A stretch of 64,000 nt of DNA from an uncultured Bdellovibrionales bacterium (lineage in GTDB: Bacteria > Patescibacteriota > Minisyncoccia > Moranbacterales > GWC2-37-73): positions 119,170-183,169 of the forward strand of contig CAZSTB010000001.1 of NCBI GenBank assembly GCA_964609855.1, in the 5' to 3' direction. This document shows, piece by piece, positions 3,085-29,734 of this stretch. The notes below the pieces were generated by a model that did no database searches, was not told the DNA's origin, and saw only the letters and a list, made by a program, of their open reading frames with translations. The translations under genes were made by a program, and so were the position numbers. The first letter of the stretch is position 1; each line of letters starts with the position of its first letter.

Positions 3085-3498
3085 ATGGAAAAAATAATCA
3101 GGTCTGAGGATGAATGGCGAAAAATTCTTACACCCGAGCAGTTTCATGTTATGCGAGAAAAGGGCACGGAAATGGCATATTCATGCGCATGGAACGAGGA
3201 TAAACTTGAAAATGGAATTTTTCATTGTGCGGCTTGCGACTTGCCTCTGTTTTCAAGCGTCACGAAATTCGCATCAGGAACTGGCTGGCCTAGTTATTTT
3301 GCACCGCTTGAAAAAGAAAATATTGAAGAAAAAGAAGATTGGTCTTTGGGAGTTTTGCGCACTGAAGTCAGCTGCGCCCGTTGCGGCTCGCATTTGGGGC
3401 ATGTTTTTGAAGATGCCGCCGATACGCCGACAGGAAAAAGATATTGCATAAATTCCGTGGCGTTGAATTTTAAGTTTGAAAAGAATAATGAACAATGA
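3085..3498 (+). CDS. msrB: Peptide-methionine (R)-S-oxide reductase MsrB
   Basis: CAACDLPLF and CARCGSHLGHVF zinc CxxC pairs. GTGWPS catalytic region. Confidence 0.9.
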   Translation: MEKIIRSEDEWRKILTPEQFHVMREKGTEMAYSCAWNEDKLENGIFHCAACDLPLFSSVTKFASGTGWPSYFAPLEKENIEEKEDWSLGVLRTEVSCARCGSHLGHVFEDAADTPTGKRYCINSVALNFKFEKNNEQ

Positions 3499-4051
3499 TA
3501 ATCAAAAGAAAATTGAAAATTTTACGTTAGGCGGCGGGTGCTTTTGGTGCCTGCAGGCTATTTTTGAGCAGGTTCAAGGGGTAGAAAAAGTTATAGCGGG
3601 TTACAGTGGAGGAGTGGTTGCTAATCCAAATTATGAAGAGGTTTCCAGTGGCAAAACTGGATATGCTGAGGTTGTAAGGATTTATTATGATGCACAAAGC
3701 ATTTCCTTGGAGGATATTTTAAACATTTTTTTCAGTATTCATGACCCCACAACACTCAATAGGCAAGGTGCGGACGTTGGAACTCAGTATCGCTCAATAA
3801 TTTTATATGAAAATAAATTGGAGCATGATACGGCTGAGAAAGTAATGCTAAAATTAATTAATGAAAAAATTTTTGACGGCATGATTGTGACTGAACTTGC
3901 AGCGTTAGAAAATTTCTATCCAGCTGAAGAATATCATCAGCATTATTTTGAAAAAAACCCGACTGCGGCCTATTGCCAGTTAGTTGTTGCTCCAAAGGTT
4001 GCAAAATTCAGAAATGAATATCAAAAATTATTCAAGAAAAATTCCCTATGA
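3476..4051 (+). CDS. msrA: Peptide-methionine (S)-S-oxide reductase MsrA
   Basis: GGGCFWC active-site motif near the N-terminus. AGYSGG. Overlaps the msrB stop. Confidence 0.9.
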   Translation: MKRIMNNDNQKKIENFTLGGGCFWCLQAIFEQVQGVEKVIAGYSGGVVANPNYEEVSSGKTGYAEVVRIYYDAQSISLEDILNIFFSIHDPTTLNRQGADVGTQYRSIILYENKLEHDTAEKVMLKLINEKIFDGMIVTELAALENFYPAEEYHQHYFEKNPTAAYCQLVVAPKVAKFRNEYQKLFKKNSL

Positions 4052-4734
4052 AAAAGAAATATTTATTTTTTCTTTTTGGTATTTTGTTTTTGAGCTTTTT
4101 CATTATTTTTTACAGGAATTATTCTCCAGTAGCGCAGCAAATTCAAGAAAGCAAGCAAAGTCCAGCCGCGAAAAAAATAGAAAGTCAAGTGAATGAGAAT
4201 AATCTAGCGGTGCCTGGTCAGAATAAATCAGATGAATTTAAAATGCCTCTTGAAAAGACTTCGGAAAGAGTCACAAAGAAAGAATTCGGAAAATATGTAA
4301 CGCCCGAAAATTCTCCAGTCAGTCCGGAAAGATTCTCCGGATACCACACTGGTGTGGATTTCGAAATATTTCCCGGGGAAGAAAACGTTGAAATAAAAGT
4401 CTCTGCCATGTGCTCGGGAAAGTTGTTGGAGAAAAGATATGCTAGCGGATATGGCGGCGCGCTAGTTCAGTCTTGCCGGCTTAATAATGAGGACGTGACT
4501 GTAATTTATGGACATCTGGAGCTTGCCAGCATAGATAAAAAAATTGGTGACGATTTAAATGCTGGAGATCTTTTAGGAATTCTGGGCGATGGAAATAGCC
4601 AAGAAACAGATGGCGAACGTAAGCATTTACATCTTGGTATTCACAAAGGAAAAGATATAAATCTTTTGGGTTATGCAAAAAATCAAACTCAACTTTCGCA
4701 GTGGCACGATCCTTGTAAATGGGTTTGTGATTGA
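4048..4734 (+). CDS. M23 family metallopeptidase (LytM domain), membrane-anchored
   Basis: N-terminal TM segment. HTGVDF and GHLE...HLHLGIH zinc-binding motifs of peptidase M23. Confidence 0.75.
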   Translation: MKKKYLFFLFGILFLSFFIIFYRNYSPVAQQIQESKQSPAAKKIESQVNENNLAVPGQNKSDEFKMPLEKTSERVTKKEFGKYVTPENSPVSPERFSGYHTGVDFEIFPGEENVEIKVSAMCSGKLLEKRYASGYGGALVQSCRLNNEDVTVIYGHLELASIDKKIGDDLNAGDLLGILGDGNSQETDGERKHLHLGIHKGKDINLLGYAKNQTQLSQWHDPCKWVCD

Positions 4735-5518: not shown

Positions 5519-5935
5519 TCACTTGCGCCCTTTTCTTGAAGTGCAATATGCACATTTGCAGCCCATAGGTTTTATATAGGTATAAAAATACTCTTTGCCG
5601 TAATCATAACCAAGTTGTTCTCCAACCTCGATATTTCTCAGTGCAAAAATCAGTATCTGCTTTCTGCGAATTTGAACTTCACAGTTGGGCTGACATGAGT
5701 GATTGATGTAACGGCTCAAATTTTCGCGACCCTTGCCGTCAATGGCCCATTTGGAATCTATTTGGAATAAGTATTTTCCGCCTCTTAGCTCAGCTTCCTC
5801 GGTTGAAATCAGGTCGCCGGTATATTCAGAAACAAGTTTTCCTTGAGTGATTTTTTCTTTAGCAAAAAGTCCTAAACCGCTTGCAGAACGGCTTACTTGC
5901 ATTAAATTCGAATTTGTTAGTATGTATTTTGCCAT
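5519..5935 (-). CDS. SET-domain protein (putative lysine methyltransferase) with post-SET Cys cluster
   Basis: RYINHSCQPNC (NHSC SET signature), ELGEQLGYDY, and a C-terminal CKCAYC cysteine cluster. Confidence 0.8.
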   Translation of the reverse strand: MAKYILTNSNLMQVSRSASGLGLFAKEKITQGKLVSEYTGDLISTEEAELRGGKYLFQIDSKWAIDGKGRENLSRYINHSCQPNCEVQIRRKQILIFALRNIEVGEQLGYDYGKEYFYTYIKPMGCKCAYCTSRKGRK

Positions 5936-6071: not shown

Positions 6072-6416
6072 ATGAAAATTGAAACTGAAGATGGTAAAAA
6101 AATTGAAGCTATTTTTAGGGTGCTAGAAATGCCTCAGAAAGAAATAGTTGAGCATATGGACAGGATCGGGGAAGCGTTGCTTATGGATGTTGTCGCTGAG
6201 GCCTTTGCGCAGAAAGATTTTTCTCCCGAGGAGGAACTCGCTAGCAAGGATGATTTAGCTAAATTCTTGTTGGAAAATTGCAGTGAGCAGGAAATAAAAG
6301 AATTTACCGCAATTGTTTTGCATGATGTGGTGGTTGAGTATTTTTCAAAAATGCTAAAAGAACTTCCGGATGAGAAAAGGGAAGAAATTGAAAGCATCTT
6401 AAACTCCATTGAATAA
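6072..6416 (+). CDS. Hypothetical acidic protein; 8 bp overlap suggests co-translation with the downstream sigma factor
   Basis: 114 aa, Glu/Asp-rich. No motif recognised. Confidence 0.45.
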   Translation: MKIETEDGKKIEAIFRVLEMPQKEIVEHMDRIGEALLMDVVAEAFAQKDFSPEEELASKDDLAKFLLENCSEQEIKEFTAIVLHDVVVEYFSKMLKELPDEKREEIESILNSIE

Positions 6417-6996
6417 GTTATCGAAAACTGATTCGGAACTGGTTGCTGATTATTTGGCGGGGGAAGAAGCTGTACTGGAGGAACTCGTTGAAAAATATCT
6501 CAAGCCACTTTATAATTTCGTCTACCAGCTTACGCATGATTCTGGTGCGGCTGAAGATATCGTGCAGGATGTATTTGTGAAAATGTGGAAAAATCTGGAT
6601 TCTTTCGATAGAGAAAAAAAATTCTCAACTTGGATTTTTGCGATAGCTAAGAATGCGGCATTGGATTGGTTGAAAAAGAAAAGAAGTTTTAGTTTTTCTT
6701 TTTTCTCGAGTGAGGCTGAAGCCAATGGGCTTGATGAAATTGAAGATGATTCCGCTTGGCATGGAAATGATCTATTAGAATTAATCGATAATAGAAAGGA
6801 TATAGAGAAATTACTGTCAACCATTTCTTCAGAAGCAAAGACAATTTTACTGCTTCATCAGGTGCATGGTTTTTCTTTGATGGAGGTTTCGCAAATCATG
6901 GGGCAATCTTCAAACACAACTAAAAGTAAGTATCGTAGAGCTATTTTGAATTTACGGAAGTTGGTAGGTGGCACTGCGCTGAAGACCTCGAAATAA
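6409..6996 (+). CDS. ECF-type RNA polymerase sigma-70 family factor
   Basis: Region 2 (DIVQDVFVKMWKNLDSFD...FSTWIFAIAKNAALDW) and region 4 HTH (LHQVHGFSLMEVSQIMGQSSNTTKSKYRRA). Confidence 0.85.
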   Translation: MNKLSKTDSELVADYLAGEEAVLEELVEKYLKPLYNFVYQLTHDSGAAEDIVQDVFVKMWKNLDSFDREKKFSTWIFAIAKNAALDWLKKKRSFSFSFFSSEAEANGLDEIEDDSAWHGNDLLELIDNRKDIEKLLSTISSEAKTILLLHQVHGFSLMEVSQIMGQSSNTTKSKYRRAILNLRKLVGGTALKTSK

Positions 6997-7103
6997 AAAG
7001 ATCAATCCCCTCGGATTGGTTTTTTATCGTCCAATGAAGTAAATGAAGTGGGTCCTAATCTTTTATTGCACCCAGACTGACAATTAATTCGTATTATAAA
7101 TAT

Positions 7104-7505
7104 ATGGAAAACAACTTGAATAAAATTTTTGCCCAAACGGAGCCTCCAAAACATTTGAAAGCTGCAGTTTTAAGGCAAATTAAGCTTGCTCAGACAAGAA
7201 AACTTCAGCGTGAGAAGCGTCTTTTTATGTTTGGTTTTTGCGCCAATGCGGCAATTTTTGCTTCTGCTATATTTATTTTTGGAAAACAATTGTTAGTTTC
7301 TGATTTTTGGAGCATTGCCTTGTTGGCTTTTACTGATTTCACTACAGTGGCTAGCTACTGGCAATCACTCGGAATGTCGCTGCTGGAAACATTTCCGGCA
7401 ATTTCGGTTGTAGGAATCTTGTTTCCGATATTCTTATTCCTATTCTTAGTGAGACAGTATGTTAATCAACATTTGAATAAGTTTACTCTAAAATTTTTAT
7501 ATTAA
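7104..7505 (+). CDS. Putative membrane anti-sigma factor (call rests on position and topology only)
   Basis: Directly downstream of the ECF sigma. Cytoplasmic N-terminal segment followed by hydrophobic helices. Confidence 0.35.
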   Translation: MENNLNKIFAQTEPPKHLKAAVLRQIKLAQTRKLQREKRLFMFGFCANAAIFASAIFIFGKQLLVSDFWSIALLAFTDFTTVASYWQSLGMSLLETFPAISVVGILFPIFLFLFLVRQYVNQHLNKFTLKFLY

Positions 7506-7506
7506 T

Positions 7507-7998
7507 ATGATGAAAAATATTGATCAAGTAGTTACTTCAAAATACTTTAAATTTATTTTATTTGGTCTGGGAGCAATAATTCTCTTGATAGCAGTCTTTT
7601 CCGCTGGGGTTAGGGTTGGTTTCAGGAAAGCCAGTTTTTCGAATGAATTTGGAGAAAATTATGAAAGAAATTTCATGGGTGGACCAAGAGGTCAAATGAT
7701 GGAAGGCCGGGGAAAATCCAATGGGCCAATGGGCGCATTCAGGGAATTTGAAGGGAGAGGCTTTCGTAATGCGCACGGAGTTGCTGGAAACATAATTTCA
7801 GTAAATGATGAAGTAATCATCATAAAAGATGGTGATAATAAAGAAAACACCGTAAGTATTACTGAAAAGACCCTAATTAAATCGCGCGGTGGCGATTTGG
7901 AAAAAAGCAGTCTCGAAAACGGTCAGCGTCTGGTTGTCGTGGGGAAGCCTGACAAAATGGGAACTATTGTGGCTGAGCTAATTAGGGTGTTTGAATAG
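7507..7998 (+). CDS. Membrane-anchored protein with a Gly/Arg-rich linker and a C-terminal beta-rich domain (paralog family A)
   Basis: N-terminal TM. C-terminal region aligns with 11291..11752 and 43641..44048 on a shared GxIISxx...IKxxDG...GQxxxVxGxxxxDGxIxAxxI pattern. Confidence 0.5.
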   Translation: MMKNIDQVVTSKYFKFILFGLGAIILLIAVFSAGVRVGFRKASFSNEFGENYERNFMGGPRGQMMEGRGKSNGPMGAFREFEGRGFRNAHGVAGNIISVNDEVIIIKDGDNKENTVSITEKTLIKSRGGDLEKSSLENGQRLVVVGKPDKMGTIVAELIRVFE

Positions 7999-9199
7999 AT
8001 TTAATAAAAAATTTAAAATAAAAGTTGCTATGAAAAAATGGAAGATTTTTGCCATCGTTGCATTATTAGGAGTCGTGATATATTACTGGTATAGTCAGAA
8101 AAATGATATTGCTAAGGCCATTCAATATAAAACAACTGTTGCGGAAAAGAGCAGTTTGACGACTTCAGTTTCTGCGAGCGGAAATGTCGTGGTTGACCAA
8201 TTGGCAACTGTTGATCCTACAATCACGGGAACAGTTGCAGATTTGGCGGTAAATGTTGGAGAAAATGTAAAAAGGGGGGCTCGGCTCTTTACTATTATCA
8301 ATGACGATCTTTCAGTAAGTAACAACAAATCAGTAGCATCTTTGCAGCAAGCTGAAAATTCAGTAGCCTCGGCGAAGCTTCAGGTGAAGCAGGCAAAAGA
8401 AGATTATGACCAGGCTAAAGATAATGACCAAAGCAGTTCCGACCAACGAAGGATACTTAAGGATAAAATTGCAATTGCTGAAAGAGGCGTACTTGCGGCA
8501 GAAAAAAATTATGCAGCCTCTTTGGCGGACTACAAAAACCAACTTTCAGATGGCGCCAAAAGAACTGTCACCGCACCAATTGATGGAACAGTCAGTGCGA
8601 TCAATATAAAAAACGGAGATGATCTGAGCCGTCTTGCATCGAGTAGTAGCTCCAATAGTGCTCCGATTATTATCGGAGATTTGAAAACTTTGAAAGCGCA
8701 GGTGGCGGTCAATGAAGTCGATATTTCTGATGTGGAAATAGGACAGAAAGTTATGTTAACTTTCAGCGCCATCGACGGACTTTCTCTGACAGGAAAAGTT
8801 GAAAAGATGGACGCGCTCGGAACGCTTTCGCAAGGAGTTGTGACATATAATGTGACAGTGGGTTTTGATGAGATTGACTCCCGAATAAAACCGCAGATGA
8901 GTGTTTCTGCTAAAATCATTACCGAGGTGAAGCAAAATATTGTGGTCGTGCCTAACGGCGCACTTAAAACCCAAGGTAATGCTATATATATTGAAGTTTT
9001 AAATATCCAAAAGCAGCCAGAGAAGCGAACCATAGAAATCGGCGCTGCCAATAATACGGAAACCGAAATAGTCAGTGGCATCGATATTGGAGATGCTGTG
9101 ATTACGCAGACCATTGATCCCAATATTAAGACAACTACTGCTTCCAGCGGCTCTAGTAGTGGTGTTAGAATTCCAGGGCTGGGCGGAGGAGTAAGATAA
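7991..9199 (+). CDS. Periplasmic adaptor subunit (HlyD/MacA-type membrane-fusion protein)
   Basis: N-terminal TM, coiled-coil hairpin region, beta-barrel/lipoyl segments. Placed upstream of the MacB-like ATPase and permease. Confidence 0.8.
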   Translation: MNRFNKKFKIKVAMKKWKIFAIVALLGVVIYYWYSQKNDIAKAIQYKTTVAEKSSLTTSVSASGNVVVDQLATVDPTITGTVADLAVNVGENVKRGARLFTIINDDLSVSNNKSVASLQQAENSVASAKLQVKQAKEDYDQAKDNDQSSSDQRRILKDKIAIAERGVLAAEKNYAASLADYKNQLSDGAKRTVTAPIDGTVSAINIKNGDDLSRLASSSSSNSAPIIIGDLKTLKAQVAVNEVDISDVEIGQKVMLTFSAIDGLSLTGKVEKMDALGTLSQGVVTYNVTVGFDEIDSRIKPQMSVSAKIITEVKQNIVVVPNGALKTQGNAIYIEVLNIQKQPEKRTIEIGAANNTETEIVSGIDIGDAVITQTIDPNIKTTTASSGSSSGVRIPGLGGGVR

Positions 9200-9269
9200 T
9201 TTCAATAATATAGCATATACAAAAGACAAACTAAACTTATTGTTTTTTTTGAATATTGACTATTGAATA

Positions 9270-9965
9270 TTGACAATGATTGAATGCAAAAATATAACTA
9301 AAATTTATCGAAGCGGAGACGTGGAAACGGTGGCGCTCAAGGACATATCTTTTTCAATTGAGAAAGGTGAGTTTGTCGCAATTATCGGACCTTCAGGATC
9401 TGGAAAATCGACGCTGATGCATATTTTGGGCGCTCTCGATACGCCGACTTCAGGAACTTATTTGCTGGATGGATTGAAAGTGTCATCGCTCGATGACGAT
9501 AAGTTGTCACAACTCAGAAGAGATAAAATCGGTTTCGTCTTTCAGTCTTTCAATCTCTTGCCACGGACTACGGTGATGAGAAATGTCATGTTGCCACTTC
9601 TGTATAGTGACACGACATTAAAGGAGAGAGAAGCGCGCGCCAGGTTATGTTTGAAATATGCGGGCATGGAAGAGAATAAATTTTTTAATCTTTCCAATCA
9701 GCTTTCTGGTGGGCAGATGCAACGTGTGGCTATTGCTCGTTCGCTAATAAATAATCCTGCGATCATTTTGGCTGATGAACCGACTGGAAATTTGGACACT
9801 AAAACTAGCAACATCGTCATGGAAGCCTTTCAAGAATTGAATAAAAAAGGTCACACCATTATATTAATCACACATGAACCGGAAATCGCCGCATTTGCGG
9901 ACCGGATTATCACAATTCGTGATGGATTGATTGAGAGCGATAAAATAATGAAAGATAAATCGTAA
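9270..9965 (+). CDS. ABC transporter ATP-binding protein (MacB/LolD type)
   Basis: GPSGSGKST Walker [16 protein letters not shown] signature, [11 protein letters not shown] Walker B. Confidence 0.9.
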
Positions 9966-9976
9966 AAGTTAGAAAT

Positions 9977-11194
9977 ATGATCTTAGATGATTTATTGAAA
10001 GAAACCTTTTGGTCTCTTTCTGCAAACAAAGTTCGCAGCGGACTTACTATTTTGGGAATCGTTATCGGAATTGCTTCCGTGATTACAATGGTTTCTATCG
10101 GACAAGGCGCTCAAAATTCCATTCAAAGTAGTATTCAGGCAATCGGGTCAAACCTTATTATTATCAGACCAGGGGCTCAGCGAAGCGGCGGAGTGAGTGG
10201 CGGGAGCGGAAGCGGGGAAACACTTACAGTTGAAGATGCAAATGCTATCAAAAATGTCGTTGAAAATGTTGTCGCAGTTGCTCCTGAGGATTCAAAACGT
10301 GCTCAAGTTACTGCCAAGGGTACAAACACAAACACTCAAATAGTTGGGACAGTAGCTGATTACGCGATTGTGCGGAGTATCGCAATGGAGTCAGGAATTT
10401 TTATCACTGAACAGGCGGTTAAGGGATTTTCCAAAGTTGCAGTACTGGGCTCAACGACGCGAAATGATTTGTTTGGAATAAATTCTGATCCAGTCGGCAA
10501 GATTATTCGCATTAAAAATGTAGATTTCGAGGTTATTGGAGTTACTGTTGCTAAGGGTGGCAGTGGTTTTACAAATCCTGATGACAGCATCTACATCCCA
10601 ATTTCCAGCTCGCAGCATTTTATTACTGGAAATACTTTCGTGTCTTCAATCAGCGCCGCGGCATCAGATCAAGGTTCAATGACTGCGGTGCAGGAAAGTA
10701 TTTCACAGCTGCTCTTGTCGCGCCATGGTTTTTCGGATCCTAAGCAAGCAGATTTCAATCTCATGAATCAAGCCGACATAATCGCCACAGCCTCAAGCAT
10801 CACGGGGACGTTTACGATTTTACTCTCCTCAATTGCTGGAATTTCACTACTGGTCGGAGGCATCGGAATCATGAATATGATGTTGACTACAGTGACGGAG
10901 CGAACCAGGGAGATTGGCTTGAGAAAAGCTGTGGGTATCAGGAAGATTTATATTAATTTGCAATTTTTATCCGAAGCAGTGGCACTGACGTTTCTTGGAG
11001 GACTGATAGGTGTTCTACTTGGATGGGGCGCTTCGCTGGCCGTGGCTAAATTTGCAAATATGGCGACTCAAATTTCATCCTCTTCGATCCTTTTGGCTTT
11101 CGGTGTGTCTGCTGGAGTCGGAATCATCTTCGGATTCTATCCTGCGCGCCGTGCTGCAAATTTAAGTCCCATGGAGGCGTTAAGATATGAGTAA
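9977..11194 (+). CDS. ABC transporter permease (FtsX/MacB family)
   Basis: MacB-like topology: N-terminal TM, large periplasmic domain, C-terminal 3-TM FtsX domain (GIGIMNMMLTTVTERTREIGLRKAVG). Confidence 0.85.
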   Translation: MILDDLLKETFWSLSANKVRSGLTILGIVIGIASVITMVSIGQGAQNSIQSSIQAIGSNLIIIRPGAQRSGGVSGGSGSGETLTVEDANAIKNVVENVVAVAPEDSKRAQVTAKGTNTNTQIVGTVADYAIVRSIAMESGIFITEQAVKGFSKVAVLGSTTRNDLFGINSDPVGKIIRIKNVDFEVIGVTVAKGGSGFTNPDDSIYIPISSSQHFITGNTFVSSISAAASDQGSMTAVQESISQLLLSRHGFSDPKQADFNLMNQADIIATASSITGTFTILLSSIAGISLLVGGIGIMNMMLTTVTERTREIGLRKAVGIRKIYINLQFLSEAVALTFLGGLIGVLLGWGASLAVAKFANMATQISSSSILLAFGVSAGVGIIFGFYPARRAANLSPMEALRYE

Positions 11195-11290
11195 ATAATT
11201 TCTAAGGTATATAAATTTCGTAAAATTATAAGGTTAAGCGGTGACTTTACGAAAATAATAATAATTTAAAATTTTAAAATTAAAAACATT

Positions 11291-11752
11291 ATGCAAAAGA
11301 GAAATATCGCAATCGGAGTAATTGTTTCATTGGTGCTTGTCGGTTTAAGTTTTTACGGCGGCATGCGATATCAAAATGCTAAGGATGGAAAATTGCAGAT
11401 TGTACCATCTGATAAATATTCCGGTAGCGACATTGGTGGGGGCGCCAATGTGAGGCAACGCATGTCAGGAAGTCAAAGTGGGCAAAGAACTTCGGGGATG
11501 CGACCTGGCGGAAATGGGGAAGATTTTGTCGGTGGGGAGATAATTTCAAAAGATGAAAATGGAATGACTTTGAAAGCTAAAGATGGTAGCTCAAAAATAA
11601 TTTTTTTCACTTCCTCTACAACTATTGATAAATCCGTAAATGTGCAAAGTGCGGAGCTGGAAATTGGCCAGCAGATTTCTGCCAATGGGAAAATTAGTCC
11701 CGATGGAAGTATGACAGCTCAAAATATTATAATCAGACCAAATTTAAAATAA
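11291..11752 (+). CDS. Membrane-anchored protein with a Gly-rich linker and a C-terminal beta-rich domain (paralog family A)
   Basis: See 7507..7998. Last gene of the ECF/MacAB cluster. Confidence 0.5.
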   Translation: MQKRNIAIGVIVSLVLVGLSFYGGMRYQNAKDGKLQIVPSDKYSGSDIGGGANVRQRMSGSQSGQRTSGMRPGGNGEDFVGGEIISKDENGMTLKAKDGSSKIIFFTSSTTIDKSVNVQSAELEIGQQISANGKISPDGSMTAQNIIIRPNLK

Positions 11753-11892
11753 GGTTTAGCTTGTTATATTATATTTCTGTATTCATTGTCGTATCTGACT
11801 GAAGTGGGAGAGAAGGCATTGTGTGTAGACGTTTGAAGTGAGGGCAGTTTAAGTTTGTGCGGCTTGTCGAGTAGTGAACATGCATAGTTAAG

Positions 11893-11927
11893 AAAAAGAC
11901 CCTTGAGGGTCTTTTTACTTAAGGGAA
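11893..11927 (+). terminator. Rho-independent terminator
   Basis: aaaaagacccttgagggtctttttact. Confidence 0.55.
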
Positions 11928-11991: not shown

Positions 11992-12249
11992 ATGTACGGT
12001 TATGATTATCCGAATATGTGCGGAGTAATTGGAGGATTCGGCTTTGGGTGGATCTTTATGCTAATCTTTTGGGGCATAATTATTTGGGCAATTGTCGCGC
12101 TGGTGCAATATGCCACAGGCAGCGATTCGCATTGGAGTAAAAAAGAAAAAGAAGATGAGGCCGTGAGAATTTTAAAGGAGCGATATGCGCGCGGTGAGAT
12201 AAATAAGGAAGAATACGAAGAGCGCAAGAGCTTGCTTGACAGACGATAA
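11992..12249 (+). CDS. SHOCT-domain membrane protein
   Basis: TM helix followed by ILKERYARGEINKEEYEERK, the short C-terminal SHOCT motif. Confidence 0.7.
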   Translation: MYGYDYPNMCGVIGGFGFGWIFMLIFWGIIIWAIVALVQYATGSDSHWSKKEKEDEAVRILKERYARGEINKEEYEERKSLLDRR

Positions 12250-12275
12250 CTCCAAGATATTGGCAGTATAATATT

Positions 12276-12659
12276 ATGCAATGTGGTTTAAAGAAAAAAA
12301 GTAAGCTCACTTTTGCTGAGACTATATCCGTTGTAAAGAAAAGGTTGGCGGAAGAAGGTTTTCAGATAATTACGGAAAATAATGTGCGAGCAATCTTGAA
12401 AGATACGCTCGATATTGAATTTGAAAGTTACGTGCTGCTGGGAATTTTTAATCCATCACTTTCACACAGGGTTTTGCTCTCTCAAAAAGATGCGGGCGTA
12501 TTTTTGCCGCTGCAAATTGCTATTTATGAAGAATTCGGACATATTTGGATTTGCAGTGAATCTGCCAATGACTCCATGGGCGCTGCAACTAATCCATTAT
12601 TAGCGCAAATTGCCGGAGAGATGGATATTTTAATCGGGCGAGCGATAAATCGCATTTAG
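12276..12659 (+). CDS. DUF302 domain protein
   Basis: Length and conserved pattern (GFQI...NP...LPLQIAIYEE) fit DUF302. Confidence 0.6.
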   Translation: MQCGLKKKSKLTFAETISVVKKRLAEEGFQIITENNVRAILKDTLDIEFESYVLLGIFNPSLSHRVLLSQKDAGVFLPLQIAIYEEFGHIWICSESANDSMGAATNPLLAQIAGEMDILIGRAINRI

Positions 12660-15131: not shown

Positions 15132-18100
15132 TTAGAACCTTTCGTTTTCATCTATAAATGTCATATATAAGGTGGGAACAATGAAGAGGGTGAAAAAGGA
15201 TGAAATGGAAAGACCGAAAATGACCGCGCTTCCCAGGGCTGTCCAGGTTTCATTGGAAAGTGTAATCGGAATGATGCCGGCAATTGTCACAATAGAAGTG
15301 ATAAAAATAGCTTCGAGTCTGGATTTTCCAGCGTCGATGATAGCTTCATTGAAAAGAATGCCAGTTTTGATATTGAGATTTATTTTGTCGATCAGGATGA
15401 TAGCATTTTTAACCACGATTCCAAAGAGAGCAAGGATTCCTATGAGCCCTGGGAAGCTCAAAGTTACCCCCAGAAGAGCCATTCCTAGGAAAACACCAAT
15501 AAGGGCCAGTGGCAAAGTTACGAGCACTATGATGGCTTTTTTGAACGAATTGAACTGTATCACAAGCGTTGAAATAATCAGGAGTGCTGCAATAGCCATG
15601 GCTCTGATAATAGAGAGAACTGACTCGGCATTCTGTTCATTTTCACCTCCAAAACTGATGACATATCCTTCAGGTAAAGAATAATTCTTGTGCATTTGGT
15701 CTTGGAATTTTTTGACAACTTCATTTGAATTAGTCGTACCGCTTACATCTGCTGTCAAAAGAACCGTCCTTTTCTGATCGATTCTGGAAATGGAATCGAC
15801 CGCAGGCGTGAGCTTGATTTGCGCCACATCCTTGATGAAAACAGGTTGCTTTTTATTATTAAGTATCTGAAGATTGGCGATGGCATCAAGCGTTGGAATG
15901 TTGTCACTTCCGAAGCGTGCCAGTACATCGATATCTTTGTTGTCGCGAATGACTGTGGTCACTGTAGTTCCAGAAATTGCAGTGCGCAAAATTGAGCCGA
16001 CTGCAGTTGCATTAAGATCATACATTTCCATTTTAAAATTATCCAAGGCAAATGTATATTCAGCTGGAGCATCTTTGAGGGAAATGTCGGAATTGATTGT
16101 GCCTTCAACTGCATCAATGATCGGTTTGAGATCGTTAGCGATCTTGTCCAAGGTCTGTAGATTTTCGCCGCTTATCTGAGCTTGAAAGGCGCTGCCTGAT
16201 GGCGGTCCTCCGCGGGGAGCGGAAACTGTAATAGTTGCATCTTGAATGTCAGAAAGTGCGCTTCTTATTTCATTTGCGATGTCGTAAGCTTTGACGGAGC
16301 GATTTTCAGTGGCTGTAAGCTTGATCGTGATAGCGGCAGTATTTGATTTGTTTGCGCCACCTCCGCCCATGCCTCCATTCGAGCCTGCATTACCGACGAT
16401 AGTTGAAAAGTTTTCTATATTTTCAATTTTCAGTAATCTGTTTTCAATTTCATTTGTGATTTTGTCGGTCTTATCCAAACTTAGTCCGACAGGACCGCGC
16501 AAGCTCACATAGAGCACATCTCCATCAGCAGCAGGGAAAAATTCCGACTTCACTACGCCAGTTATCGGCAGCGCAACTGCAAAAAGGAAGAGTGCGAGCG
16601 TTGAAAAAAGTGTAACCAGTCTTCTTTTTTTGGTACTCGTTGTCATTCTTAAATATTTTTCATAGACAGGTAGAATCTGATCAAAATGAATAATTCCGTG
16701 AATGAGCTTGCTAGCCAGTGTCGCGTCCTTTCGGTTTCCTTGAACAAGCAATTTTTGTTTGATAAGTTCATCGCTGTCCCATTCCTTTTCAGCTAAAGTG
16801 AAATTAGATTCCAACGTTATTTTGCCATTTGTGAAATACCAGAAAATCATCCAAGTAGTTATGGCGAAAGAAAAAGCTGCAAAAATATAACCGAGCGTTG
16901 AGTGTGCGGTTACTGATGATAAGCCTACCAGAAGAGTGGAGAATAGAATAAGCCAAAAGAATTTTTTGGTAAGTCTGATTCTTTCAAGCACAGCAGCCAG
17001 TGGATGATTGATCATTAAGGCGATTAACAGTGATGATACCAGTGTGACGGAAACAGTGATGGGAATTGATTTAATGAATTGTCCCATCATGCCCGAAGCC
17101 ATTAAGAGTGGCAAGAATGCCCAGACCGTTGCGAACGTTGTGGAAACTAAAACTACTTTGAAATCATTAAGCACAAGTAACACTGCTTCTTCCGGCGTAT
17201 ATTTCCCAGTTTTCATATACTGCTTGGTGGCGCTAACCACCACGATCGCGTCATCAACCAAAAGTCCAAGTGAAAGAAGTAGTGCAAAAATTGAAAGAAA
17301 ATTTAGCGACGTTCCCGTGGCCTGCATTACTCCAAACGTCACAAAGAAAACCAGGGGGATTGCAATTCCGGCCACGAAAGCTTCTTTTAGTCCGACGATT
17401 AAAAATAATATTCCAACCACCAAAATCAATGTCAACATGAAATCATGCGTCAATTGATCGAAATCTTTTCTAATTCTATCTGCTTGATTTACAGTGTCGT
17501 CATAGGCGATACCAGCTGGGAAAGTTTTGATCATCTCATCCATTTTCAGGTGAGCGCTGTCGACGCTGTCGATAATCGAGCCGCCTGTTCTCTTGACGAT
17601 TTGTAGGGTCACTGCGTTTTCTGGTGCATTTCCCGCAATAGAGAGACGGGAGTATAGAGTTTTTTCAATTGATTTTTCCTGCACTGCAGCAATATCTTTC
17701 AAAAAAACAACAGCACCTTGTTCGCTGTGAGTAATGGGAATTTCGCCTAATGTTTTGGCGTCGTAAAATCTTCCATCAGTTCTCACTGGGTAATTGAATT
17801 CACTCCCCTTGAAATTGCCGGCAGGAATTGCACGGTTGGCGAGTGCGATTGCGCTATTTGCTTGATCTGCTGAAATATTGAAAAGTGTTAATTTTTGCGG
17901 GTCATAAGCTACTTCGAATTCACTTTGGTCTCCTCCTGAAATATTCACCTCGCGAATTCCGGGAATTTTTTCAAGCTCATCTTGCATTTTTTCGGCATAC
18001 GTCCTCAATGTAAAACCATCATAGGGACCGACCAGTGCAAAGGTCACGATCGGCGTATCATCCAAAGAAATTTCGCGCACCTCGGGTTCATTTGCATCAG

Positions 18101-18542
18101 CTGGCAGATCTTGTTTGATGGCTGGCAGCTTGTCTCGCAATTTTCTTACGGAATCTTCGACATCCTGATCGGCTTCAAATTCAACGACGACTGTCGAAAA
18201 AGAGTTGGCAGAAGTAGAGGTTAATTTTTTGATACCAGTTATGCCGGAAACATTGGTCTCAATTTTTTTGGTCACCAATTCTTCCACATCAGAAGGAGAA
18301 GCGCCCGGATAAGCTGCGCTCACAATGGCTGTAGGAATTTTTACTTCAGGATTAGATTCAAGTGGGAGTTGTAGGAAAGAGTATATGCCCCAGCCTGAAA
18401 TTAAAATGATGAGCAGAACTACTACTCTAAAGTTTGAGACGAAAAAATTCAGCCAAGTATTTCTTAGTTCAGGTCTGAATTCAAGTTTTTCCAAATATGC
18501 GCCGTCACTCGAGGTGGCATGATTATTATTTTGAGTTTCCAT
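15132..18542 (-). CDS. RND superfamily efflux transporter permease (AcrB/HAE-type, 12 TM, two large periplasmic loops)
   Basis: 1136 aa with duplicated TM bundles and periplasmic domains. Sits with an adaptor and a MarR regulator. Confidence 0.85.
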   Translation of the reverse strand: METQNNNHATSSDGAYLEKLEFRPELRNTWLNFFVSNFRVVVLLIILISGWGIYSFLQLPLESNPEVKIPTAIVSAAYPGASPSDVEELVTKKIETNVSGITGIKKLTSTSANSFSTVVVEFEADQDVEDSVRKLRDKLPAIKQDLPADANEPEVREISLDDTPIVTFALVGPYDGFTLRTYAEKMQDELEKIPGIREVNISGGDQSEFEVAYDPQKLTLFNISADQANSAIALANRAIPAGNFKGSEFNYPVRTDGRFYDAKTLGEIPITHSEQGAVVFLKDIAAVQEKSIEKTLYSRLSIAGNAPENAVTLQIVKRTGGSIIDSVDSAHLKMDEMIKTFPAGIAYDDTVNQADRIRKDFDQLTHDFMLTLILVVGILFLIVGLKEAFVAGIAIPLVFFVTFGVMQATGTSLNFLSIFALLLSLGLLVDDAIVVVSATKQYMKTGKYTPEEAVLLVLNDFKVVLVSTTFATVWAFLPLLMASGMMGQFIKSIPITVSVTLVSSLLIALMINHPLAAVLERIRLTKKFFWLILFSTLLVGLSSVTAHSTLGYIFAAFSFAITTWMIFWYFTNGKITLESNFTLAEKEWDSDELIKQKLLVQGNRKDATLASKLIHGIIHFDQILPVYEKYLRMTTSTKKRRLVTLFSTLALFLFAVALPITGVVKSEFFPAADGDVLYVSLRGPVGLSLDKTDKITNEIENRLLKIENIENFSTIVGNAGSNGGMGGGGANKSNTAAITIKLTATENRSVKAYDIANEIRSALSDIQDATITVSAPRGGPPSGSAFQAQISGENLQTLDKIANDLKPIIDAVEGTINSDISLKDAPAEYTFALDNFKMEMYDLNATAVGSILRTAISGTTVTTVIRDNKDIDVLARFGSDNIPTLDAIANLQILNNKKQPVFIKDVAQIKLTPAVDSISRIDQKRTVLLTADVSGTTNSNEVVKKFQDQMHKNYSLPEGYVISFGGENEQNAESVLSIIRAMAIAALLIISTLVIQFNSFKKAIIVLVTLPLALIGVFLGMALLGVTLSFPGLIGILALFGIVVKNAIILIDKINLNIKTGILFNEAIIDAGKSRLEAIFITSIVTIAGIIPITLSNETWTALGSAVIFGLSISSFFTLFIVPTLYMTFIDENERF

Positions 18543-29206: not shown

Positions 29207-29266
29207 TTTTTTCTTCCCTATGTTAGATATGCTATAATTAAGGAGTCATATTTGTAATATAATATT

Positions 29267-29734
29267 ATGGATGAAAAAGAGTACCAACTTGAGATAGTGT
29301 CGCAACTGGAAAAAAATGAAGTTGCGTTGAGTGAGCTTTACGCACTATACCAAAGTAAGTTTCCGACTCGCAGAGAATTCTGGCAAGGCTTAGTTGATGA
29401 TGAGCAAAGTCATGCGCAGTGGATCAGGACGCTTAAGAGAAAAATCGAAGAAGGTGAAGTCAATATTAAAGAGCATCGCTTCAATATAGACATAATTAAT
29501 GATTTCAATAAGGAGGTTAAACAAAAGGAGCTTGAAATCAATCAAAATAATATTCCCTTGATTGAGGCGCTTGCAAACGCAGTAAAATTTGAACAAACCC
29601 TGATTGAAAGACGATTTTTTGAAGTATTTAAAGATGATTCACCTGAATTGGAAATGCTTTTGCTGGCACTGGAATATTCCACAAAAAATCATTTTGCAGC
29701 AATTCAAAAAGCCTATAATGCGGAAAATATCTAA
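29267..29734 (+). CDS. Hypothetical helical protein
   Basis: 155 aa; no motif recognised. Confidence 0.4.
   Translation: MDEKEYQLEIVSQLEKNEVALSELYALYQSKFPTRREFWQGLVDDEQSHAQWIRTLKRKIEEGEVNIKEHRFNIDIINDFNKEVKQKELEINQNNIPLIEALANAVKFEQTLIERRFFEVFKDDSPELEMLLLALEYSTKNHFAAIQKAYNAENI

Follow-up and report, generated by a model that had tools for sequence, protein, structure and literature searches.

The window analysed here is a stretch of 64,000 nucleotides (nt) from an uncultured Bdellovibrionales bacterium (GTDB Patescibacteriota; Moranbacterales; GWC2-37-73; assembly GCA_964609855.1, contig CAZSTB010000001.1, positions 119,170-183,169). Its + strand carries genes for an extracytoplasmic function (ECF) sigma factor, a 133-amino-acid (aa) membrane protein of a new family (mem133), two related proteins named pa1 and pa2, and an exporter composed of adaptor, ATPase and permease (Table 1). 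Comparison with related loci revealed that these genes form two modules, a regulatory one consisting of sigma, mem133 and pa1 (the trio) and an effector one consisting of adaptor, ATPase and permease (the pump) together with pa2. A conserved ECF-type promoter in front of mem133 most likely ties the sigma factor to the exporter operon, as suggested by the position and specificity of the motif. With moderate confidence we read the locus as an exporter of the YknXYZ/Spr0693-95 type under control of an ECF sigma factor, an anti-sigma factor and possibly a co-sensor; the anti-sigma and co-sensor roles, the recognition of the promoter by this sigma factor, the signal and the substrate are what we infer.

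The sigma factor and the pump

An earlier sequence-only reading of this DNA, in which pa1 and pa2 were called paralog-A proteins, had listed eight open reading frames (ORFs) as an envelope-stress-controlled export module. All eight are present on the + strand at the coordinates and in the order that it gave, and its family assignments for the sigma factor, the adaptor, the MacB-type ATPase and the FtsX permease held in Pfam, NCBIfam and PDB comparisons. The sigma factor displayed a Sigma70_r2 domain (6e-22, residues 26-92) and a Sigma70_r4_2 domain (3.6e-8, residues 131-179) and reached 107.7 bits with TIGR02937 (cut-off 42.9); consisting of sigma-2 and sigma-4 only, with about 200 aa and neither region 1.1 nor region 3, it belongs to the ECF (group IV) sigma factors. 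Its nearest solved structure is SigW of B. subtilis (2e-18), while the B. subtilis equivalogs SigW, SigY, SigM and SigX all stayed below cut-off (SigW 96.8 vs. 209 bits, SigY 95.5 vs. 194 bits). In its text, the published ECF classification leaves MacB, FtsX and candidate-phyla-radiation groups unmentioned.

The adaptor matched HlyD_D23 (1.5e-18), HlyD_3 and TIGR01730 (RND_mfp; 109 bits, cut-off 94.9) and, among solved structures, ZneB (5.7e-16) and MacA (1.7e-14); the gene call of 389 aa shows YknX-type Pfam matches. For the ATPase, ABC_tran was found with 3.3e-34 and the N-terminal half of MacB as best NCBIfam match with 1.3e-76, the translation revealing Walker A (GPSGSGKST), signature (LSGGQ) and Walker B (ILADEP) motifs and an H-loop. 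The permease contains MacB_PCD (6.9e-46, residues 21-244) and FtsX (7e-20, residues 285-398) and is closer in sequence to the MacB permease halves of E. coli/Acinetobacter (5gko, 2.5e-64 over residues 8-403) than to Spr0695 of S. pneumoniae (5xu1_M, 3.3e-40). With four transmembrane (TM) helices, a large extracytoplasmic core domain between TM1 and TM2, a C-terminal FtsX domain, a cognate ATPase and an adjacent adaptor, it represents a MacB-type (type VII) permease. No TolC match occurred among the scanned genes of the locus, in which no search aimed at TolC was made; the monoderm homologues YknXYZ and Spr0693-95 are described without a TolC-type exit duct (PMC4887032, PMC5768738).

A conserved promoter motif in front of mem133

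Related loci were collected in two ways. One genome per GTDB species was scanned with pa1 as anchor, giving a species-level set of 80 loci, and a permease-anchored metagenome scan gave an independent set of 80 loci at 41-68% identity, 36 of them with full flanks. A position weight matrix (PWM) for the promoter was trained on the genome set and then applied to the metagenome set.

The sequence-only reading had looked to 7507 or 7991 for a promoter with an AAC-rich ECF-type -35. Neither position is preceded by a dyad above background or by a PWM match, and a promoter at these places was discarded. Instead, a bipartite motif with the consensus TGC[AG]YCY-N16-TCGTAnTA, the -35 of which is TGCAYC-like, lies between the sigma and mem133 genes. 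In the window it consists of the -35 TTGCACC (7066-7072), a 16-nt spacer and the -10 TCGTATTA (7089-7096), its CGTA ending 10 nt before the ATG at 7104. The dyad TGCA-N19-CGTA was present in 31 of 69 mem133 upstream regions, compared to a shuffled maximum of 7 (at least 4-fold over the best shuffled dyad), and the PWM detected the motif 5' of mem133 in about 68 of 70 loci; counted by species, about 70 of 77 have it. This site, scoring 29.3 bits where shuffled sequence reached 19.1 at most, is the only one in the whole window. A scan of 1.36 Mb from related loci yielded about 70 sites at the mem133 position and about six elsewhere, two of the latter lying 5' of the sigma gene (L031, L058) and three 5' of a gene for a 273-aa alpha/beta hydrolase. 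In the independent metagenome set, the motif was found in 14 of the 20 loci with the trio and in none of the 60 others. The CGTA of the -10 matches the SigW class, SigW being the closest solved sigma factor. No conserved motif upstream of the sigma gene was found by Gibbs sampler or dyad search, and autoregulation as a general rule was rejected; it holds only in L031 and L058.

In 35 of 56 loci, no more than 7 nt separate the sigma stop codon from the beginning of the -35 element, and 26 of these have the element inside the sigma ORF; CGTA lies 8-10 nt before the start codon in 36 of the 56. Because the -10 ends so close to the start codon, the mem133 transcript is probably leaderless or nearly leaderless. 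Leaderless mRNAs may be frequent in this genome: of 48 gene starts examined in the window, only 5 showed a Shine-Dalgarno-like motif, and TATAAT boxes stand 4-5 nt before the ATG of a DUF302 gene (12276) and of the gene at 29267 (sites 12259-12278 and 29250-29269).

Terminator-like hairpins after the sigma gene (-13.3 kcal/mol, z -3.85 against shuffles) and after pa2 (-16.4 kcal/mol, z -3.9) suggest two transcription units, probably split by the hairpin and U-run following the sigma gene. The former hairpin is not conserved across the loci, where the -35 is so often near or inside the sigma ORF. The permease-pa2 interval displayed no significant RNA structure, and an Rfam scan of the window returned no riboswitch or RNA family.

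Some variation around the motif was also observed. Two loci (L051, L053) have an insertion of 1.3-1.7 kb between the sigma gene and the promoter, the motif still being placed directly 5' of mem133; one ORF of this insertion begins MLDTTFEKLGLKREHSDVYLALLQGG, resembling a helix-turn-helix (TrmB-like) regulator. In three related genomes (L009:13243, L032:19316 and L033:9582, all on the - strand) the motif, with 24.6-26.1 bits, precedes the conserved hydrolase gene by about 80 nt, and the hydrolase is a possible second regulon member there.

Gene order and modular distribution

The order sigma, mem133, pa1, adaptor, ATPase, permease is constant in essentially all of the 80 species-level loci with enough flank, and recurred in three contigs located by exact-protein look-up. 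The exception, L076, keeps sigma, mem133 and pa1 with no pump within 10 kb. The sigma gene is directly upstream in 75 and the adaptor adjacent in 78 of the 80 loci, at protein identities of 22-43% for mem133, about 50% for pa1 and 53-87% for the permease among cassette orthologues; of 72 loci, 37 have pa2 directly after the permease, with no other conserved gene downstream. The co-directional cassette proposed earlier thus exists as a conserved unit, and the suggested test of co-conservation of the paralog-A genes with MacAB-like exporters turned out positive, these genes not being scattered among relatives. The evidence beyond chance comes from this synteny across other species and not from the window itself: co-orientation carries little weight, because the + strand carries almost all window genes up to 14.5 kb.

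The permease-anchored set separates the genes further. Among its 36 full-flank loci, 10 have the trio and pa2, five the trio only, five pa2 only and 16 neither, so that 15 loci contain the whole trio and 21 no part of it; neither mem133 nor pa1 was ever seen in the absence of the sigma factor. The trio accompanies 16 of 25 close permease relatives (at least 55% identity) and none of 10 distant ones. This distribution, together with PWM matches only in loci with the trio, assigns pa1 to the regulator and pa2 to the pump.

Loci lacking the trio can have another regulator instead. In L125 (2503-4222) adaptor, ATPase, permease and pa2 come after genes for a response regulator and a probable histidine kinase, recognised by visual inspection of N-terminal sequences. 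In L088 (2428-4322) the trio is replaced by a different ECF sigma factor, a membrane protein of 250 aa and a secreted one of 149 aa. An additional pa2-like gene was seen between pa1 and the adaptor gene in one locus (L120:4190).

pa1 and pa2 as predicted membrane-anchored OB-fold proteins

The homology of pa1 and pa2, proposed earlier, was evident from BLASTP (28% identity over 68 aa, E 1e-4) and from profile-profile comparison of their families with HHalign (98.2% probability, E 4e-14); no further copy was found by BLASTP of both against all six-frame ORFs of the window. For pa1, 281 homologues at about 50% identity were retrieved, the named ones all from Patescibacteria and mostly from Moranbacteria. 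Both proteins are weak DUF5666 (PF18914) matches, their 22.0 (pa1) and 16.7 bits (pa2) staying below the gathering threshold of 27 bits. Many homologues have precomputed PF18914 matches, and 32 of 33 pa2 family members match DUF5666 at E 0.01 or below (best 2.2e-7). In the literature, only incidental mentions of DUF5666 were found.

The structural model of pa1 shows a TM and juxtamembrane helix (residues 12-57) bearing an invariant FSxxFGxNYERNF motif, a disordered linker rich in Gly, Met and Arg, and a confidently predicted five-stranded closed beta-barrel (residues 92-162), that is, an OB fold; pa2 is modelled with the same architecture. Neither sequence has a lipobox or signal-peptidase site, and the hydrophobic segment comprises 22-24 residues. 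According to the models, both are therefore N-terminally membrane-anchored OB-fold proteins and not the free secreted beta-rich proteins of the sequence-only reading. Its picture of cargo bracketing the exporter is also unlikely, because the two belong to different modules, pa1 travelling with sigma and mem133 and pa2 with the pump. Comparable membrane-anchored or periplasmic OB-fold proteins are the haem chaperone CcmE and the BOF family members YgiW, YdeI and YobA.

A metal-resistance link was considered in view of the Met-rich linkers and of Nramp, P-type ATPase, CsoR, SHOCT and DUF302 neighbours, and was dropped, these neighbours not being conserved.

The new membrane protein family mem133

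The protein encoded at 7104 matches no characterised family: no Pfam or NCBIfam match was obtained for it or for any of 54 family members, a sequence-profile search of the PDB gave no match and a fold search of the PDB nothing specific. A single-sequence search of a 5.8-billion-protein set returned only the protein itself, and a profile search revealed 252 unnamed relatives of 123-169 aa. The AF2 model (pLDDT 87) predicts N-terminal helices at residues 2-11 and 16-65, which have the conserved residues P14, L18 and I26 on one face and run into the first TM helix (TM1). Next come several short helices in a conserved stretch (residues 66-98, with S66, F68, W69, D78 and SLLETFP) and then the final TM helix. 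Anti-sigma factors bind and inhibit their cognate sigma factor and are encoded next to it; mem133 is adjacent to the sigma gene and strictly co-occurs with it. The "anti-sigma position" assigned to it earlier is conserved, and judged from this position mem133 is most likely the membrane anti-sigma factor of the system.

Proposed mechanism and alternative explanations

In the mechanism that we favour, the sigma gene would be transcribed separately, here together with an unrelated acidic gene, with transcription largely ending at the hairpin in this genome. RNA polymerase with this sigma factor would recognise TTGCACC-N16-TCGTATTA and produce an mRNA starting at or just before ATG 7104, encoding mem133, pa1, adaptor, ATPase, permease and pa2 and ending at 11888-11922. 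Via its conserved N-terminal cytoplasmic amphipathic helix, mem133 would hold the sigma factor at the membrane, with pa1 probably acting beside it as obligatory co-regulator or sensor, a role suggested because mem133 has almost no extracytoplasmic domain. pa1 occurs only together with sigma and mem133, and B. subtilis SigY, which depends on both YxlC and YxlD, sets a precedent. An envelope signal would free the sigma factor, which would then drive the operon for its own inhibitor and the pump; induction would be self-limiting because the putative anti-sigma gene comes first in the sigma-dependent operon. The pump may form a monoderm-type MacAB-like assembly of permease dimer, ATPase dimer and TM-anchored adaptor funnel, similar to YknXYZ and Spr0693-0695. 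By mechanotransmission it would take up a harmful peptide or amphiphile at the outer membrane face and drive it out through the wall, pa2 being an optional OB-fold accessory.

Several points weigh against this mechanism. mem133 lacks similarity in sequence or fold to known anti-sigma domains, with neither a zf-HC2 or RskA match nor an HxxxCxxC/Cys-His motif, and its N-terminus ahead of TM1 comprises only about 40 residues, below the class I anti-sigma domain (zf-HC2/RskA) of about 60-90 aa with three or four helices, which often has HxxxCxxC; a domain of this class was not recognised in mem133. Most ECF sigma factors are autoregulated, a group-specific bipartite promoter usually being located upstream of their own operon, and the motif precedes the sigma gene in two loci only. 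The missing leader is less diagnostic, because so few gene starts of the window carry a Shine-Dalgarno-like motif. Finally, the pa1-anchored sampling is biased to pa1 with neighbours, which the permease-anchored sample corrects in part.

The lack of resemblance to known anti-sigma domains would also fit mem133 and pa1 being structural or assembly subunits of the pump, similar to YknW, the sigma factor being controlled otherwise or acting as a constitutively active, dedicated promoter-recognition factor. Both are encoded before the adaptor in the same sigma-dependent operon, the invariant juxtamembrane motif of pa1 could dock on adaptor or permease, and YknXYZ activity requires an extra membrane protein (PMC4887032). 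We consider this explanation unlikely, as the pump occurs without mem133 and pa1 in the 21 permease-anchored loci lacking the trio, including close relatives at 55-63% identity, as both proteins never occur without the sigma factor while L076 has the trio and no nearby pump, and as neither matches the Yip1 family. It is still less probable that pa1 and pa2 are cargo, extracted as anchored OB-fold proteins by a MacB-type machine in the fashion of LolCDE, which extracts lipoproteins, and delivered to the cell surface or a host cell. Such a role would suit their common build of N-terminal anchor, disordered Gly-rich linker and small globular domain, the finding of pa2 only directly after the permease, and the handling of substrates at the outer membrane face by MacB-family machines (MacB review PMC5985334). 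Many close pump homologues have neither protein, pa1 persists without pump in L076, its most conserved part is located just outside the membrane, as fits a resident rather than a released protein, and the hydrophobic segments come without a lipobox or signal-peptidase site. Both explanations are disfavoured by the modular distribution.

That the adjacency is meaningless, with ordinary leading-strand neighbours and a promoter-like sequence by chance, has next to no probability. Co-orientation is indeed uninformative in this window, and the acidic gene and the SHOCT and DUF302 neighbours are not conserved; the gene order is nevertheless kept over 80 species representatives despite the low identities of mem133 and pa1, and the conserved motif keeps to one fixed position, being absent elsewhere. 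Synteny and the position and specificity of the motif refute chance adjacency of the six core genes.

Going beyond sigma-controlled export, the trio could tentatively be viewed as a previously undescribed three-component ECF module of Patescibacteria, an idea to which we give less credence than to the mechanism above. A minimal anti-sigma factor, with an N-terminal domain of about 40 aa and no sensor domain, would work only together with a membrane-anchored OB-fold sensor, the sigma factor would not be autoregulated, and the anti-sigma gene would be the leaderless first cistron; the module would be portable, having been coupled to a MacB-type pump and, in one genome (L076), occurring pump-free.

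Comparison with known systems and significance

YknWXYZ of B. subtilis is a SigW-dependent four-component MacB-type exporter that protects against SDP toxin (PMC3210768, PMC4887032), its fourth membrane component YknW modulating the assembly of YknXYZ (PMC4887032). The locus resembles it in combining an ECF sigma factor with a TM-anchored adaptor (YknX), a separate ATPase (YknY) and a four-TM permease with an extracytoplasmic domain (YknZ), and in a small extra membrane component encoded first in the operon. It differs in that the sigma factor is encoded directly upstream and appears dedicated, with one site in 64 kb, and that the extra components are a new 133-aa family and OB-fold/DUF5666 proteins, Yip1 (YknW) being matched neither by mem133 (54 members) nor by pa1. 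The -35 is TGCAYC compared to TGAAAC in the SigW system, and the YknZ domain matches the permease weakly (4e-6).

Spr0693-0694-0695 of S. pneumoniae, a solved MacAB-like pump with a proposed role in antibiotic and antimicrobial-peptide resistance (PMC5768738), shares the three-gene architecture of adaptor, ATPase and permease in addition to the permease similarity given above; descriptions of that operon include no gene for an ECF sigma, mem133 or an OB-fold protein. In the sigY-yxlCDEFG cluster of B. subtilis (ECF31), which includes an ABC transporter, YxlC (+1) and YxlD (+2) are both needed for SigY regulation (PMC7826278). Both loci display a sigma gene, two small membrane proteins and then an ABC transporter. 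However, the sigma factor studied here falls far short of the SigY equivalog (95.5 vs. 194 bits) and is mostly not autoregulated, and for mem133 and pa1 no similarity to characterised families was detected. The transporter of the SigY cluster is of the ABC-2 type, whereas here it is of the MacB type with an adaptor.

Novel features are the linkage of two uncharacterised families to an ECF sigma factor, a -35 without the usual AAC, a sigma factor that is not autoregulated and, probably, a leaderless target operon. Bacteria of the candidate phyla radiation have tiny genomes, and to our knowledge few regulatory circuits have been described in them. A dedicated cassette of sigma factor, promoter and pump, kept in many Moranbacteria species, likely matters for survival, for example against membrane-active compounds of hosts or competitors. 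The finding leaves the understanding of ECF signalling and of MacB pumps unchanged; it offers a testable regulon of one promoter motif and one operon, two uncharacterised families with a specific proposed role (mem133 and the OB-fold proteins with the NYERNF motif), and a candidate orthogonal sigma/promoter pair for synthetic biology.

Features of the locus and neighbouring genes

Table 1. Genes and signals of the sigma-exporter locus (positions within the window)
Feature	Position	Strand	Evidence or remark
Acidic 114-aa protein	6072..6416	+	ORF; without Pfam or NCBIfam family
ECF sigma, 195 aa	6409..6996	+	Sigma70_r2, Sigma70_r4_2, TIGR02937
Terminator-like hairpin	6996..7025	+	A-run and U-run flanks; directly after sigma stop codon
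Bipartite ECF-type promoter motif	7066..7096	+	PWM, dyad search
mem133, 133-aa membrane protein, new family, candidate anti-sigma	7104..7505	+	First gene of predicted sigma-dependent operon
pa1, 163 aa, predicted single-pass membrane-anchored OB-fold protein, DUF5666-like	7507..7998	+	
Membrane-fusion adaptor, MacA/YknX type, N-terminal TM anchor	7991..9199	+	Probable true start ATG 8030 (389 aa)
ABC ATPase, MacB/LolD/YknY type	9270..9965	+	Probable start ATG 9276 (229 aa)
MacB-type permease	9977..11194	+	MacB_PCD, FtsX
pa2, 153 aa, second predicted membrane-anchored DUF5666/OB-fold protein	11291..11752	+	Variable pump accessory
Intrinsic-terminator-like hairpin with U-run	11888..11922	+	Likely exporter-operon end

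From 6072 to 11752, the gaps between the eight genes are -8, 107, 1, -8 or +31, 70 or 76, 11 and 96 nt, the value of +31 between pa1 and the adaptor applying if the latter begins at ATG 8030, as gene callers choose. The sequence-only reading had described minimal spacing with several starts overlapping stops. Some gaps are indeed tight, but the 107-nt gap between sigma and mem133 contains the hairpin and the promoter motif, and only one overlap is robust, resting on a TTG start. Likewise, its single co-directional block is borne out for the six core genes, conserved in order, but not for the acidic gene at its front, and it probably comprises two transcription units.

The acidic gene is a neighbour of the sigma gene, probably co-transcribed with it, and not a conserved component of the module to which it had been assigned. 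It was found in none of the 80 related species-level loci, and among 1.84 billion representatives no more than 15 clusters are homologous to its protein. The closest homologue, 45% identical, is encoded in a neighbourhood without a sigma gene, flanked by ribonucleotide reductase/FKBP genes on one side and phosphoribosyltransferase genes on the other. A role of the protein as cytoplasmic sigma regulator was rejected on account of its absence from relatives and this unrelated context.

Upstream of the block, at 3476-4734 (+) and outside the cassette, methionine sulfoxide reductase A-like and M23-type peptidase-like genes were recognised by translation, their ORFs overlapping by 4 nt. A divergent SET-domain gene follows at 5519-5935 (-), and homologous SET-domain genes are located near the cassette in other loci, for example L046, L076 and two more. 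After the terminator of pa2, genes for an 85-aa membrane protein with a SHOCT domain and a 127-aa DUF302 protein were found at 11992-12659 (+); SHOCT is present in 3 and DUF302 in 0 of the 80 species-level loci. Further downstream, at 15132-18542 (-), lies a gene for an RND-type transporter (ACR_tran) of 1136 aa, in a bacterium that is presumed to be single-membraned.

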